A DNA stretch of 64,000 nucleotides from a virus. Under the pieces are notes generated by a model, which saw only the letters and a list, made by a program, of their open reading frames with translations, was not told where the DNA came from and ran no database searches. A program made the position numbers and the translations under genes. Numbering within the stretch: position 1 is the first letter of the stretch; every line of letters begins with the position of its first letter. The stretch spans positions 26,504 to 90,503 of IMG/VR virus record IMGVR_UViG_3300021960_006131; one strand, written 5' to 3'. Positions 4,675 through 64,000 of this stretch are shown in pieces.

Positions 4675-4703
4675 ATTATAGTAAATTTTGAGATGTTTGT
4701 CAA
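4675..4703 (-). promoter_or_regulatory. Consensus sigma70-type (early) promoter
   Basis: The minus strand reads TTGACA-aacatctcaaaatttac (17 nt)-TATAAT, upstream of the 56-aa ORF. Confidence 0.9.
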
Positions 4704-4704
4704 C

Positions 4705-6123
4705 CTATCTTTGATTATGTTTTGGGTCTGGTCTATTCCACCAACTCCATAATTCAGGATGTTGGCAATAGATATCATTTATTGTTAAACGGCCATCTTG
4801 CCCGTCTTTTCTGATTGCTTGAATAATTTGTTGATACTTACGACCATTAAAGAATTGATCGTTTGCTGTATCAGGCCATTGCTCTTGGAATGTTGGCGAT
4901 TCAAGTAGTCCTTCTAGTTCGCGAATTAATGTTTTTTGCTTGTCAGTTACTCTGGGCCTACAGTAATCTAATAAGTCATTTACTATTTCGTCAAGTATGT
5001 GCCTAGGCCATGCCATTGGTGATAATACTATATCTGCATGGAAGGCAAACATTCGTTTTGTTTCTATTTTAACATCTAGTTCTAGTGCATAATCTAAAAA
5101 GTTTTTGATATCAAATAAACCTGGACCTGTAATTGTTAAGTCCATTATCATTTTATCATTGCCACCTGGTAGTGCTACACCCTCTCTAAAGTTTCTATCC
5201 CATTCTTCCCAATTAAGTCCTGTTCTAATAAACTCACCTATTGGTCCTGTGCCGTCAATACTAGCACACATAGTCCAGTCTTTTGCTTGTGGTAACCAAT
5301 CATATAAGTAATAGTCTTTGTATCTTACTCTACTTAGGTTACTATTATATCTTAAATGAACTTTGTGTAAATTATTATCTGCTTGTAGTCTATCCATTGA
5401 CTTCCAGTGTATATCATACATAAGTGGTTCACCTCCTACCCAGTATAATTCTTCAACTGTGCCCGATTTGATATATTCCCAAAACTCTTCTTCAACTACT
5501 TCCTTTTGGAACTTTTCGATAATCTTCTTATTCTCGGGGACCATGAATGGTTGTTGTTCAGGAGTCCAAAGGTCGTGTTTCCTTTTTTCCGTTTCCCAAC
5601 TGCTACTGAGTTGTTCGCCACACATACGGCATTTAAAATTGCATAAATTACTATACCTATAATCAAAAGAGATAGGTTCCATTGTAGTATATCCATTTTC
5701 GTCTGTCTCCTCAAAACATTGATCTATTTTGTTGTTAAATAAAAATCCTGTAAACCATTGACGATATGTACTGTTACTTAATAAACTGTCATTGCACACA
5801 TCACATTGTGGTATCTTTTCGCCTGCCATAAGTTTTTTTCTTATGTCCATCATATAGGGTGAGTTCCAGTGTTCTTTTAAACTCACAGGCTTATAGTCAG
5901 CAATAGTACCTGATTCTTTTACTTCTCCATACTTTTCGTCATTACTTGCATCTATGTACTGTTTTTGAAATTGATGTTCTTCCCTACTTGCACAACACAT
6001 ACGCCTTTCACTTTGTGGTGAAATATATGTGTGAGTCCAAGGAGCAGTACAAAATACTTTGTTAGGTGAATCTGGACTTACAGAACCATGTTCCCAAATT
6101 GGTTTTATTTTACTCACTATCAA
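4705..6123 (-). CDS. Radical SAM protein with N-terminal SPASM/twitch-like Cys cluster
   Basis: CNFKCRMC (CxxxCxxC), GGEPL, N-terminal FCTAPW...RMCC...CDVC, and ASIDG...IRTG. Confidence 0.92.
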   Translation of the reverse strand: MIVSKIKPIWEHGSVSPDSPNKVFCTAPWTHTYISPQSERRMCCASREEHQFQKQYIDASNDEKYGEVKESGTIADYKPVSLKEHWNSPYMMDIRKKLMAGEKIPQCDVCNDSLLSNSTYRQWFTGFLFNNKIDQCFEETDENGYTTMEPISFDYRYSNLCNFKCRMCGEQLSSSWETEKRKHDLWTPEQQPFMVPENKKIIEKFQKEVVEEEFWEYIKSGTVEELYWVGGEPLMYDIHWKSMDRLQADNNLHKVHLRYNSNLSRVRYKDYYLYDWLPQAKDWTMCASIDGTGPIGEFIRTGLNWEEWDRNFREGVALPGGNDKMIMDLTITGPGLFDIKNFLDYALELDVKIETKRMFAFHADIVLSPMAWPRHILDEIVNDLLDYCRPRVTDKQKTLIRELEGLLESPTFQEQWPDTANDQFFNGRKYQQIIQAIRKDGQDGRLTINDIYCQHPELWSWWNRPDPKHNQR

Positions 6124-59745: not shown

Positions 59746-60597
59746 ATGCCAGCAAAAGTGAAATACTTAAATAACAAAGATTTACTTAAACAGATACATC
59801 TAAGCAAGATGTCTTTCTGTTGGGTTAAGTCACCACAGTATGATTATCCTGACGTTATAATTGATTCTAATGATAGTATCACCGATGAAGTTATACTGAC
59901 TGCAAAGAAAAATCAAGCAGGAAAAATAAAAGATTTAGCATATCAACAAGCGGTTGCTAATTACGACGGACCTGCAAACAAAAAGCCTAGACAAAAAGAT
60001 TTTTTAGTTGAGCCTGAATCCATACCTGATGAAGATATAACTGTTAGAAAAATGACGTTTGAACACATTCCATTAGAGCCAGGCAGAAAAAAGAATCCTA
60101 GAAACGAGTCAGAAACTAAATCAAAGTGCAACTTTCCGCCATTTAAACATTATGGATTAATAAATGGTACATGGGAAGAGGTTGCCAGGAGCCACTGGAA
60201 AGGTGGTCCTAAGAGCGGAAAGTTCTGTGTTGACCATGGCAGTATCACAAATGAGTTAGGCAAAATGTATTTAAAACTCGTAGAAAGGTATAGTCAAAGA
60301 TCAAACTGGCGTGGTTATACTTATGTAGATGAAATGCGTGGACAAGCATTATTACAACTTGCAATGATTGGATTACAGTTCAATGAAGCAAAATCAGATA
60401 ATCCGTTTGCATATTATACTGCCGCAATTACAAACAGTTTTACAAGAGTGTTAAACATAGAAAAGAAAAATCAAAACATCAGAGACGATATTTTGATCGA
60501 CTCTGGGCACTTACCGAGTTATGGCAGACAGATTCAGCATGAAAATGAGATGAAGGCTTTGAGAGACGAAGCAGATAGTACTGAATCGGATGCTTAA
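59746..60597 (+). CDS. gp55: Late-transcription sigma factor, T4 gp55-like
   Basis: YLNNKDLL, NWRGYTYVDEM and FNEAKSDNPFAYYT; directly precedes gp47/gp46 as in T4-like phages. Confidence 0.85.
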   Translation: MPAKVKYLNNKDLLKQIHLSKMSFCWVKSPQYDYPDVIIDSNDSITDEVILTAKKNQAGKIKDLAYQQAVANYDGPANKKPRQKDFLVEPESIPDEDITVRKMTFEHIPLEPGRKKNPRNESETKSKCNFPPFKHYGLINGTWEEVARSHWKGGPKSGKFCVDHGSITNELGKMYLKLVERYSQRSNWRGYTYVDEMRGQALLQLAMIGLQFNEAKSDNPFAYYTAAITNSFTRVLNIEKKNQNIRDDILIDSGHLPSYGRQIQHENEMKALRDEADSTESDA

Positions 60598-60599
60598 CT

Positions 60600-61613
60600 A
60601 TGGCAGATAATTTATTCAATAAAGCCGCGGTCTTTACAGACATACATTACGGCTTGAAACAAAACAGTCATCAACATTTAAAAGATTGTAATAATTTTGT
60701 TGATTGGTTTATCACAGAAGCGAAATTACGAGAAGCAGAAACATGCTTCTTTTTAGGCGACTGGCATCATCATAGAGCAAGTGTAAATGTTGCAACACTT
60801 AATGCAAGTTGGAAAGACCTTAAAAAATTAAATGACGCATTTGACAAAGTGTATTTTATCACAGGTAACCACGATTTATATTACAGAGACAAACGTGAAC
60901 TCAACAGTATGGAGTTTGCCAGAGACTTAGATAACTTTGTTATGGTTGATGAGTTATTTGAAGAAGGCAACGTTGGTATTGTACCGTGGCTAGTTGAAAA
61001 CGAATACAAAAAAGTTGCAAAGATGAAATGCAAATACATGTTTGGTCATTTTGAATTGCCTTTCTTTAAAATGAATGCAATGATTGAGATGCCTGACCAT
61101 GGTGGCATAAATGCATCTATGTTGCGTAATCCAGATTATGTATTTACAGGACACTTCCACAAAAGGCAATATGACGAAAACATACATTACATAGGTAATG
61201 CATTTCCACATAATTACGCAGATGCAGGAGACAACGACAGAGGCTATATGTATCTTGAATGGGACAAGGAGCCTGTGTATGTTAATTGGCCTGAGTGTCC
61301 TAAGTATGTTACTTGCGGACTTGTTGAATTAATAGATGATCCTGCAAAATATCTAGATGCATACACTTATGCTAGAATCAAATTAGATGTTGACATCAGT
61401 TATGAAGAAGCAACGTTTATCAAAGAAAACTTTATGGACAAATACAAGTGTAGAGAAATACAACTTGTACCAATAAAAGAAGTCGAAGAAGAATACGAAG
61501 CCGGCGAAATATCATTTGAAAGTGTTGAACAAATTGTTATTAGCCAATTACAAACCATAGAAAGTAATACAATTAACACAGAAAAGTTAATTGACATTTA
61601 CCAAAATTTATAA
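60600..61613 (+). CDS. gp47: Recombination endonuclease subunit (Mre11/SbcD-like)
   Basis: Metallophosphoesterase motifs DIHYG, GDWHH, GNHD, GHFE and GHFH. Confidence 0.93.
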   Translation: MADNLFNKAAVFTDIHYGLKQNSHQHLKDCNNFVDWFITEAKLREAETCFFLGDWHHHRASVNVATLNASWKDLKKLNDAFDKVYFITGNHDLYYRDKRELNSMEFARDLDNFVMVDELFEEGNVGIVPWLVENEYKKVAKMKCKYMFGHFELPFFKMNAMIEMPDHGGINASMLRNPDYVFTGHFHKRQYDENIHYIGNAFPHNYADAGDNDRGYMYLEWDKEPVYVNWPECPKYVTCGLVELIDDPAKYLDAYTYARIKLDVDISYEEATFIKENFMDKYKCREIQLVPIKEVEEEYEAGEISFESVEQIVISQLQTIESNTINTEKLIDIYQNL

Positions 61614-61616
61614 TAT

Positions 61617-63386
61617 ATGCTTAAATTAAAAAACATCAGTGTAAAGAATTTCATGAGTGTTGGAAACAACGTTCAAGGTGTACGTTTCGACGACAAAAAC
61701 TTAACACTAGTTCTAGGTAATAACTTAGACTTAGGTGGTGACGGTAGCAGAAATGGTACAGGTAAAACTACTATTATCAATGCACTCAGTTATGCATTAT
61801 ATGGCGAAGCATTAACAAACATCAGACGTGATAACCTTATCAACAAAACAAACGGTAAGGGCATGATTGTTAGTGTGGACTTTGAACTTAATGGTGTTGA
61901 ATACCGTATAGAAAGAGGTAGGCGTCCTAATGTGTTACGTTTCTTTGTTAACGGCACAGAAACCGAAGACCAAGAACAACAAGGCGACAGCAGAGAAACA
62001 CAAAAACACATAGAAAAAATAATTGGTTTTAGTCATGAAATGTTCAAACACATTGTTGCACTAAACACATACACTGAACCTTTCTTGGGTATGAAAAATA
62101 ACGATCAGCGAGACATGATCGAGCAACTGCTTGGTATACAGGAATTATCAGAAAAAGCAGAAACACTCAAAGAAAAAATGAAGGACACTAGAGACAGTAT
62201 CAAAGAAGAAGAAATTCGTATTAATGCTATCAAAGATGGCAATACTCGAATGGAAAAGAATATCAAAGAAATAGAAAGCCGCAGTAAGGCTTGGGAAGCC
62301 AATAAGAAAGCCAAACTATCTGAAATGGCTGATGCATTAGAAGAATTAAATGAACTAGATGTAGATGATGAGATAGCAAAACACAACACACTTGTCGAAA
62401 TAAAAGATCACGAAGCAAACTTAAATGTCCTAGTAAGTAATATAACTAACACAGAAAACAGCATTAAAAGAAGTAATACTAAACTGCAAACACTAGAAGC
62501 AAATCTATTAAAGGCAAAAGAAGGTGTATGCCCTGCATGTGGGCAAGATACAGCACATTTAGACACACACGAAGAATATACGGCCGATTTAAACACCGAA
62601 ATAACAGAAGAAAAGACATATTACGACACACTTGTCACTAAAGAAAAAGAGTTAAAAACAGGCGTAGAAATGCTAGGCCCTGTTCAAGAACGCCCTAAAA
62701 CCTTCTATAGAACATTAGAAGAGGCCCTTACACACAGAAATAATGTGGATAATTTAATACAAAGTATCACAGACAAGAGCAATGAAGAAAATCCTTATGT
62801 AGAACAAATAGAATCTATGAAGGAAACAGGAATACAAGAAGTCAGTTGGGATATTATTAACGAACTTACAGCACTAAAAGATCATCAAGAATTCTTATAT
62901 AAATTGCTTACCAGCAAGGACAGTTTTATCCGTAGACGTATTATTGATCAAAACATTGCTTACTTGAATCACAGACTAGCACACTACTTGAATGCTATTG
63001 GCTTGCCGCATGATGTTAAGTTTAACAGTGACCTCAGTGTAGAAATAACTGAGTATGGCAGAGACTTAGACTTTGATAATTTAAGTAGGGGTGAACGTAA
63101 CAGACTTATACTGAGTTTGAGTTGGGCATTCAGAGACATATATGAAAGTCTTAATCACCCAATGAACTTCTTGTGTATTGACGAACTTATTGACAGTGGC
63201 TTAGATGGTGTTGGTGTAGAAAATGCATTAGGCATACTCAAGAAAATGAGCAGAGAGCAAAACAAAAACATCATGCTAATATCACACAGAGAAGAACTTA
63301 GTGGTAGAGTAAATGATGTGCTGTATGTAATCAAAGAAGGTGGCTTCACCAGTTACAATACAGACACAGAATATGTAGGAACTTAA
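61617..63386 (+). CDS. gp46: Recombination ATPase subunit (Rad50/SbcC-like)
   Basis: KNFMSVGN, Walker A NGTGKTT, coiled coils, Zn hook CPACG, signature LSRGE, Walker B IDELIDSGLD, and ISH. Confidence 0.95.
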   Translation: MLKLKNISVKNFMSVGNNVQGVRFDDKNLTLVLGNNLDLGGDGSRNGTGKTTIINALSYALYGEALTNIRRDNLINKTNGKGMIVSVDFELNGVEYRIERGRRPNVLRFFVNGTETEDQEQQGDSRETQKHIEKIIGFSHEMFKHIVALNTYTEPFLGMKNNDQRDMIEQLLGIQELSEKAETLKEKMKDTRDSIKEEEIRINAIKDGNTRMEKNIKEIESRSKAWEANKKAKLSEMADALEELNELDVDDEIAKHNTLVEIKDHEANLNVLVSNITNTENSIKRSNTKLQTLEANLLKAKEGVCPACGQDTAHLDTHEEYTADLNTEITEEKTYYDTLVTKEKELKTGVEMLGPVQERPKTFYRTLEEALTHRNNVDNLIQSITDKSNEENPYVEQIESMKETGIQEVSWDIINELTALKDHQEFLYKLLTSKDSFIRRRIIDQNIAYLNHRLAHYLNAIGLPHDVKFNSDLSVEITEYGRDLDFDNLSRGERNRLILSLSWAFRDIYESLNHPMNFLCIDELIDSGLDGVGVENALGILKKMSREQNKNIMLISHREELSGRVNDVLYVIKEGGFTSYNTDTEYVGT

Positions 63387-63811
63387 TGAGCGACTGGACC
63401 TATAACGGAGAAGTAATAGACAACTTACCAGAGGATTGCGAGGCCATTGTATATCTAATCACTAACAAACAAAACGGCATGAAATATGTTGGCAAAAAAT
63501 TAGCCAAACGTAAAGTTACTCGTCCTCCGCTCAAAGGCAAAAAGAACAAAAGACGCAGTACAAAAGAAAGCGACTGGAGAGACTATTGGGGTAGTTCAGA
63601 TCACCTACAAGCAGATGTAGAAAAATTAGGTGAAGATCAATTCACCAGAGAAATACTTTACTTCTGTGCCAGCAGAGGCATAGCCAGTTACTTAGAAGCC
63701 AGAGAGCAATTTGAAAGAGAAGTGTTGCTCACAGACGATTACTACAACGGAATCATCAACGTTCGCATAGGTGGTTCAAAAATACTCAAAGAAAACGTCA
63801 AGCCGCGATAA
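63386..63811 (+). CDS. Small stand-alone GIY-YIG family (Seg-like) nuclease
   Basis: AIVYLITN...KYVGKK, YWGSS, FTREIL, LEAREQF and YYN; no C-terminal DNA-binding extension. Confidence 0.8.
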   Translation: MSDWTYNGEVIDNLPEDCEAIVYLITNKQNGMKYVGKKLAKRKVTRPPLKGKKNKRRSTKESDWRDYWGSSDHLQADVEKLGEDQFTREILYFCASRGIASYLEAREQFEREVLLTDDYYNGIINVRIGGSKILKENVKPR

Positions 63812-64000
63812 CTATTTAACGAACAGACCAAGGCACAACATCACGGCACACCCGGCACACACATAGGTCCATGCACCACCCCATCGAGGCTATTAATATC
63901 GATTTCCCTGACAATCCGGCAATGGAAACACCCGGTGCGAGATTCTGGAATGTATGGCGTTAAATGAAATACAGACAAACGACAAACAGTATTAAATGAT
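63812..64000 (+). ncRNA. Candidate structured non-coding RNA or regulatory element (runs off the window)
   Basis: GC-richer than the rest of the window; nested complementary segments found by eye; three GGCACA repeats; GATAACTA late motif at 63807-63814. Confidence 0.45.

Follow-up and report, generated by a model that had tools for sequence, protein, structure and literature searches.

The nature of an RNA gene behind a small nuclease gene

What occupies the last, comparatively GC-rich nucleotides of the viral contig IMGVR_UViG_3300021960_006131, directly behind the gene for a minimal GIY-YIG nuclease? The window studied here, i.e., the final 64 kb of this 90.5-kb contig (contig positions 26504-90503), ends where the contig ends and leaves 189 nt 3' of the nuclease stop codon. 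An initial annotation of the window proposed that these nucleotides belong to a multi-branch non-coding RNA (ncRNA) that might act together with the nuclease, or to a replication or packaging signal. Covariation among homologous loci strongly supports the ncRNA; it is a real RNA of an undescribed family, and it is encoded by a separately selected gene whose core spans about 360-400 nt in the window's family and 490-620 nt in cultured relatives. We tentatively propose, with a confidence that stays a little short of even, that this RNA acts in cis, pairing again with the DNA that encodes it and thereby opening or priming replication origins.

The contig end falls about 40% into the RNA, in keeping with the earlier remark that the element is truncated, and the rest of the contig contains no second match to the missing 3' half. 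We gathered homologous loci by protein (the best 80 of 597) and by RNA motif (at least 120). A related element free of open reading frames (ORFs) was present in 64 of the 80 protein-found loci and a more distant one in 4; 11 loci had none, and one had no downstream DNA. From the family of the window (family A) we extracted 44 sequences of 358-407 nt and aligned 40 of these, which share less than 96% identity (mean 74%), with the window copy; the full-length homolog L002 provided the landmarks for those parts that lie beyond the contig end. The visible parts are the following:

63812..64000, + strand: visible part of the RNA gene; the P4 loop helix, the pseudoknots and the twin boxes lie past the contig end and are known from homologs only
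63812..63868, + strand: A/C-rich leader of variable length with GGCACA-type words (37-92 nt from stop codon to core and 0-4 words in homologs)
63869..63957, + strand: 5' domain, closed by helix P1 (63869-63874/63952-63957); 93% of cells paired
63884..63902, + strand: hairpin P2a (63884-87/63899-902); double changes at 4 of 4 pairs
63904..63950, + strand: arm P2b-d; a stem of at least 4 pairs in 41 of 41 rows
63968..63993, + strand: helix P3 (63968-72/63989-93); 100% of cells paired, first pair G-U in 34 rows and A-U in 7

The pair model, for which we combined alifold output with mutual information and inspection, comprises 63 pairs including two pseudoknots. It pairs 97.8% of 2505 cells and shows compensatory double changes at 42 pairs, compared with 30-43% pairing in slid versions and no equal among 500 shuffles; the model was fitted to the same 41-row alignment, and its counts therefore lean its way. 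The evidence for structure is covariation and not folding energy, because the latter does not stand out from shuffled sequences (z +1.15 for the window piece, z -1.5 to +0.5 for eight full-length homologs). The frequent G-U changes when the + strand is read and the GNRA-type tips suggest that the element is a + strand RNA. The GC content behind the nuclease gene is 45-46% compared with 35% contig-wide, as had been noticed initially. A coding sequence entering from the minus strand, raised as an alternative, was not borne out; the region is non-coding in the nearest full-length relatives, in which the next ORF of at least 100 aa begins 496-510 nt past the nuclease stop codon.

Every sequence word quoted in the initial annotation was found in its place, and the ATCGA/TCGAT stem proved to be real, with double changes at all four inner pairs and 98.8% pairing. 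The other stems seen by eye did not survive the comparison. The GCACC/GGTGC stem is intact in only 1 of 41 rows and the TTCC/GGAA (63924-27) stem in only 2; the T of GGTC (63866-69), the supposed partner of GACC, is present in only 9. The 8-bp closing stem was reached in none of the 25 loci scored among the first 28 (one had 7 bp, the others 5 or fewer). The GGCACA repeats do occur in the leader, but they number 0-4 per locus, and the leader (63812..63868) shows no conserved pairing in homologs. Helix P1 has double changes at 3 of its 6 pairs and includes a G-U pair in the window copy. Arm P2b-d is formed by 63904-07/63947-50, C63912-G63939 and 63916-19/63932-35; alignment columns 82/110 read CG in 30 rows and GC in 11, P2d is 96% paired, and the optional GNRA-type tip reads GAAA, GCAA or GAGA.

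In full-length homologs the parts follow each other in the order 5' domain, conserved-loop helix, two pseudoknots, box 1, hairpin and box 2. Pseudoknot 1 joins the five nucleotides that follow a CCG to the tip of a long stem; in pseudoknot 2, a hairpin loop pairs with the bases preceding box 1. Pseudoknot 1 was formed in 106 of the 112 scored members of the marine families, compared with 8% in cross-family swaps (5 of 117 were not scored), and pseudoknot 2 reached at least 6 bp in 71 of 112, compared with 14% in swaps. We discarded a candidate stem that would have joined the nucleotides preceding box 1 to those preceding box 2, since they covary with the P5 loop instead.

The Rfam search suggested earlier matched no family. 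In an Rfam 15 cmscan of the window, 14 + 12 marine loci and 6 cultured loci, the best E value was 0.12, far below threshold; this comparison took in GOLLD, ROOL, HEARO, IMES, group I introns and Polynucleobacter-1. The Polynucleobacter-1 RNA (RF01718) is likewise an aquatic non-coding motif; it gave no cmscan match to the present RNA, and the Polynucleobacter-1 sequences in the accessible part of PMC2864571 look unrelated. We found no description of the family in the accessible literature; the supplements of PMC5737381 and PMC10690425 may hold pieces of it, in the latter case because the IMG/VR motifs given in its accessible part are 29-151 nt long. Contigs from marine RNA libraries cover the element in 3 of the 4 runs compared with L002, one with near-full identity; such contigs give neither strand nor level and may include DNA, and a lack of cover is uninformative. 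Word shares in marine RNA runs were small.

Twin boxes near the 3' end match by identity

The strongest covariation that we observed is an identity between two columns about 50 nt apart, not a complementarity. In family A, two 10-nt boxes flank a hairpin near the 3' end and agree at 9 of 10 positions in every one of the 40 loci, while occurring in 10 variants at a spacing of 46-72 nt. Box pairs from the same element reached this 9/10 level in 43 of 44 cases, compared with 10% of swapped pairs. For 135 marine elements in 14 groups, the box finder returned 129 (2 of them off-target) and missed 6. An exact box core of at least 7 nt was present in 124 of the 135, as compared with 10 of 204 shuffles. 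When one base of box 1 is bulged, the 2-3 bases before the boxes match as well (43 of 44 in family A vs. 32% in swaps; 25 of 29 cultured copies vs. 35%, the 4 misses being wrong box 1 picks by the script).

The mismatches between the boxes run in one direction. The first mismatch (box 1/box 2) is G/A in 26 variants from 12 groups, T/C in 7 variants (one an off-target pick) and of other kinds in 11; the reverse mismatches, A/G or C/T, were absent among the marine variants. Groups are the safer count for this direction, since variants inside a group are related. We found no complementary partner for the boxes at a fixed place on the + strand. The simplest base-pairing account would have box 1 pair with the strand complementary to box 2, an arrangement that accepts G-T and U-G but not A-C. 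We therefore consider it likely that box 1 of the RNA can pair with the template strand at box 2; the evidence for this hybrid consists of box identity and mismatch direction. Identity covariation with a one-way wobble bias is an unusual comparative signature of an RNA that pairs with its own DNA.

Two further site pairs (A1 columns 267/409 and 331/418; L002 about 4685-4800) covary by identity at 100% and 90% and are collinear with the boxes; the matched region may hence be longer and discontinuous. A second family (family B; L016:4420-4900, L020, L042, L061 and others) has a differently folded element after the same nuclease and carries the same terminal twin boxes; its 3' end matches that of family C in a hidden Markov model (HMM) search (E 9e-7), and a covariance model (CM) misses its core. 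Four loci (L056, L070, L075, L076) have a further ORF-free element about 200-500 nt past the nuclease stop codon, in which boxes were not identified. It shares a pseudoknot motif of similar kind, its A/C-rich leader is tandemly repeated, and it has a weak HMM link (E 1e-4).

Several copies of the RNA are present in cultured jumbo phages

The late sigma factor encoded upstream of the nuclease has its closest cultured relatives in PA5oct, GAP32 and 121Q-like jumbo phages (40-46% identity), and GAP32, 121Q and PA5oct possess an ORF-poor stretch at the syntenic place. The GAP32 stretch matches 285 places in 72 phage records. GAP32 itself has copies at 35, 99, 177, 261 and 341 kb; five are present in each of BF and Munch, four in 121Q, A4 and XaC1, and three in RaK2 and PA5oct. 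All copies are dispersed and lie on the + strand of their records, and an extended -10 promoter word precedes 24 of 28. The parts have the same order as in the marine elements and both pseudoknots change in step, with pseudoknot 1 formed in 29 of 29 scored copies and pseudoknot 2 reaching at least 6 bp in 25 of 29, compared with 29% in swaps (one copy was not scored).

A CM built from marine elements alone and run on 25 loci had its seven best matches all on predicted elements, one of them marine (E 1e-11) and six cultured (E 0.002-0.026), among which the PA5oct copy at 246 kb was matched over the full model length. Sequence HMMs interlink the marine families (E 1e-20 to 2e-4) and barely reach the cultured copies (best E 0.02); a BLAST search with the family A RNA against cultured phages gave 27-nt chance matches only. 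The CM misses family B loci. It found nothing on Atu_ph07, and its blank on Melnitz is weak evidence because at genome scale it recovered only 2 of 5 GAP32 and 2 of 3 PA5oct copies. A descriptor of pseudoknot 1 plus boxes gave about one false match per 40 kb and missed the PA5oct copies.

The PA5oct copy at 246 kb is ncRNA004 of PMC7318152, provided that the coordinates of that report are those of NC_071039, which has the same length. This 619-nt + strand transcript made up 0.08% of phage reads early and 0.02% late in infection (PMC7318152); the accessible part of the report treats it as a transcribed region without an ORF and gives no structure, family, paralogs or function. Its annotated end coincides with the end of box 2. 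ncRNA004 itself carries the P4-type loop, both pseudoknot pairings, the twin boxes and an upstream promoter, so that this orphan transcript gains a structure and a family. The PA5oct copies at 13 kb and 76 kb bear no ncRNA annotation. PA5oct ncRNA001-003 (L273, L274, L275) are not the present element, and tandem repeats follow L273; two of these three are highly abundant and left unexplained in the accessible part of PMC7318152.

Six cultured copies (L216, L223, L224, L228, L229, L232) carry an optional hairpin, which is inserted at one of two sites and contains a conserved word; short matches to this hairpin occur in Atu_ph07. Two RaK2 copies, L238 (280 kb) and L295 (191 kb), are near-identical from the pseudoknot 2 hairpin to about 150 nt past box 2 and differ in their 5' halves, which looks like a sign of recombination between copies.

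A candidate for R-loop replication origins

How might such an RNA work? It would be made either from a promoter of its own or as the 3' part of the nuclease transcript, and would then fold. After RNA polymerase has moved beyond box 2, the folded RNA may present box 1, which would pair with the template strand at box 2 in a hybrid of 3 + 7-10 bp with one bulged base. The resulting R-loop could open or prime a replication origin in the manner of ColE1 RNA II and the T4 oriF and oriG transcripts, and the dispersed, co-oriented copies would represent multiple origins of these 290-380 kb genomes. Origins of the R-loop type fit because the copies are dispersed, co-oriented, promoter-led and of low abundance; the own promoter and the discrete non-coding transcript were seen in cultured copies (24 of 28 promoter words; ncRNA004), not in that of the window. 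With respect to the initial suggestion of a replication or packaging signal, replication is thus the reading that we favor, but packaging or a genome end found no support. Contig ends near the element are scattered (for L001-L080, 42 of 80 lie within 4 kb 3' of the nuclease and 23 of 80 upstream, with no fixed site), and the PA5oct copies at 13, 76 and 246 kb are away from the borders of the 39-kb terminal repeat.

In ColE1, a G-rich part of RNA II hybridizes to a C-rich stretch of the template close to the origin. RNA II is an ncRNA of about 550 nt; it has a promoter of its own and must be folded for its hybrid with the template to persist (accessible part of PMC5043065). The present RNA resembles it in being promoter-led and, if the proposed hybrid forms, in pairing with its own template; in contrast to RNA II, it has variable, locus-matched box pairs and several copies per genome, and no similarity in sequence or fold was seen between the two. 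T4 possesses at least five dispersed origins with promoter-driven R-loops, which, according to the accessible part of PMC3016281, have no common sequence motif and for which an AT-rich unwinding element suffices. The likeness to oriF and oriG lies in the several dispersed, promoter-driven candidate origins of a T4-related phage, whereas the elements described here share a large conserved fold. By its likely job, the RNA would be a variant among the R-loop primer RNAs, in a family that itself has no Rfam match. We found no account of how replication starts in RaK2-like jumbo phages in the accessible literature, including the review PMC13282480; this conserved, large, multi-copy RNA is a concrete candidate that is genetically testable in cultured phages. 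A bolder version of this origin proposal, which we judge unlikely, is a self-addressing and perhaps catalytic RNA machine, in which box 1 would serve as a guide that finds the matching DNA box and the bulged base would position the primer end. Any matched box pair could then reprogram where the genome opens, and the GIY-YIG protein of the marine branch may have been recruited to nick there.

Several observations weigh against a function at origins. The skew at four-fold sites carries no replication-strand signal (GAP32 +0.014/+0.017 for +/- genes), and a search for clusters of small-hairpin words picked out 2 of the 5 GAP32 copies along with 8 further places. Behind box 2 the AT content is raised only slightly (72-75% over 60 nt vs. 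64% genome-wide), and the 268-kb marine contig G001 shows a single copy. Sequence relates the marine to the cultured elements weakly (CM E 0.002-0.08), and their homology rests on architecture. The first core base is mismatched as G/C or G/T in some of the copies in 121Q, A4 and Munch, the box core shared by all copies within GAP32 and within 121Q would also suit a factor acting in trans, and the boxes of the window's own copy lie out of sight beyond the contig end.

The same RNA-DNA pairing might serve something other than first-round priming, such as transcription termination, formation of the RNA 3' end, or a site for recombination or fork restart by gp46/47 and a resolvase. This is rather unlikely in our view, although the coincidence of the annotated ncRNA004 end with box 2, the missing skew signal and the location of the syntenic copy next to gp46 and a resolvase or EndoVII gene all agree with it, as does the lack of an intrinsic terminator-like site in L002 4200-5000. 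A doubly pseudoknotted fold of 350-600 nt in 3-5 evenly spread, promoter-led copies would seem to exceed what termination needs.

The nuclease is a persistent but dispensable neighbor of the RNA

The initial annotation had inferred that RNA and nuclease might form a ribonucleoprotein particle (RNP). In the version that we considered, the GIY-YIG protein would bind the RNA through its basic hairpin, and box 1 would guide a nick at box 2 or at the elements of rival phages. The adjacency is indeed persistent. Of 80 motif-found loci examined, 77 were informative (3 were too short; the loci are not independent), and the nuclease gene lies within 1.5 kb of the RNA in 69 of these; in 64 it is the immediate neighbor and has the same orientation. 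It remains beside the RNA in 5 loci in which gp46 has been relocated and in 2 in which it is flipped. The protein, moreover, lacks a DNA-binding tail and has 12 K/R in 23 residues, and a GIY-YIG enzyme of phage ICP1 reportedly targets a replication origin.

Set against this, RNA and nuclease each occur without the other. PF19835, the family of the nuclease, is absent from all 4 complete cultured genomes tested, three of which carry copies of the RNA, and 7 of the 77 motif-found marine loci (contig fragments of 10-63 kb) have the RNA without the nuclease gene. Conversely, no RNA lies behind the gene in 11 of the 80 close homologs (72-79% identity; best 80 of 597), which occupy several places in a quick and poorly resolved protein tree (5 changes, at least 2 of them forced), and Melnitz phages keep a 71% identical nuclease gene within a dense operon. 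An obligate RNP is not supported because the nuclease also occurs without the RNA; we regard an obligate partnership as unlikely and the RNA-guided nick as improbable. The nuclease is a long-standing neighbor of the RNA that is not required for it and, in the marine branch, at most a facultative helper; such a facultative link may be compatible with the persistent adjacency. Pairs of the OMEGA/HEARO type likewise place a small nuclease gene beside a pseudoknotted RNA; here, in contrast, RNA and nuclease each occur alone, the nuclease fold differs, and Rfam gave no match.

The arrangement of genes around the RNA varies. In L125, L127, L186 and L193 the adjacent nuclease gene is encoded on the other strand, in a head-to-head arrangement with the RNA; unrelated genes precede the RNA or separate it from the nuclease in ten loci (L003, L012, L033, L159, L099, L101, L104, L105, L138, L153), and in L101, L104, L105 and L138 an upstream ORF extends into the 5' region of the RNA. 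Where GIY-YIG is missing, the neighbor is often a gene for a Holliday-junction resolvase or EndoVII (L146, L148; L215-L218), which for L146 and L148 we presume by eye from sequence motifs.

Other roles for the boxes and the fold

We also weighed explanations of the twin boxes other than a hybrid at an origin. One is a scaffold RNA acting in trans, whose boxes would bind a dimeric phage protein and be kept alike by module swapping or gene conversion. The copies within GAP32, BF and 121Q have box cores in common, and box type varies among the closest homologs of the window copy, which would fit swapping of 3' modules. We find it quite improbable nonetheless: the marine elements contain 31 genuine 7-mer cores, boxes vary among the copies of a single genome (in Munch and, judged by eye, in PA5oct), gene conversion would remove the fixed G/A difference, and ncRNA004 is of low abundance. 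Another is a template RNA, in which box 2 would be copied by a polymerase and the new strand would then shift to box 1, in the manner of telomerase-like systems, retrons or defence reverse transcriptases. It predicts the same wobble direction, and the mismatch direction and the free spacing fit; yet RVT_1 (PF00078) was found in 0 of 5 genomes or records, three of them complete, although a highly diverged reverse transcriptase could escape such a search, and we hold this template role to be very doubtful. That the fold acts as single-stranded DNA at the origin is scarcely credible, for small-loop hairpin words after box 2 (by eye) and the low transcript level are set against many single changes from G-U to A-U or G-C on the + strand, GNRA-type loops, and the promoters and discrete transcript of the cultured phages.

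The SegE-type nuclease and the genes at the contig end

The genes and the promoter word preceding the RNA are:

59746..63386, + strand: late sigma factor, then gp47 and gp46 (from the gene annotation of the contig end)
63386..63811, + strand: gene for a SegE-type minimal GIY-YIG nuclease of 141 aa (PF19835)
63807..63814, + strand: GATAACTA over the nuclease stop codon, a candidate promoter word one base off the contig's late-promoter word (G)ATAAATA

The nuclease matches PF19835 (SegE_GIY-YIG) with an E value of 1e-31 and 109.8 bits against a curated cut-off of 25, and falls in phrog_447. The match spans residues 4-124, and there is no second domain in the 141 aa; the C-terminal DNA-binding (NUMOD-type) domain of orthodox GIY-YIG homing endonucleases is absent. 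The basic loop of the initial annotation is a beta-hairpin after the YIG motif with 12 K/R within residues 38-60, and its description of a minimal enzyme without DNA-recognition tail holds. GIY-YIG enzymes are marked by the GIY and YIG motifs and a C-terminal Glu (accessible part of PMC1564403); the window protein has GIY, YIG, Glu and Asn and is a member of this superfamily. Y23, Y34, G36, E104 and N121 are kept in 95-97% of 119 distant homologs. As for the usual central Arg, no invariant Arg follows YIG in these homologs (K38 95%, R88 91%, R127 66%).

The predicted structure (predicted local distance difference test score, pLDDT, 88) has the I-TevI catalytic domain as its best fold match (Z 7.9, root-mean-square deviation 2.8, 82 aligned residues); single-sequence prediction was poor (pLDDT 51), and a sequence search of the PDB and Foldseek returned nothing significant. 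The protein thus shares family and fold with SegE-type enzymes (PF19835), T4 EndoII and the I-TevI catalytic domain and differs from them in the missing DNA-binding tail and the basic beta-hairpin that follows YIG. PHROGs and many GenBank records name its family 'NAD synthetase', which looks like a propagated misannotation.

The late motif noticed at the nuclease stop codon is in place, but its role as a late promoter is not established; on the contig, ATAAATA precedes ORFs in 12 of 20 occurrences and ATAACTA in 3 of 24. Farther upstream in the window, a 7041-aa ORF lies amid structural genes at 23602-44727 on the - strand.

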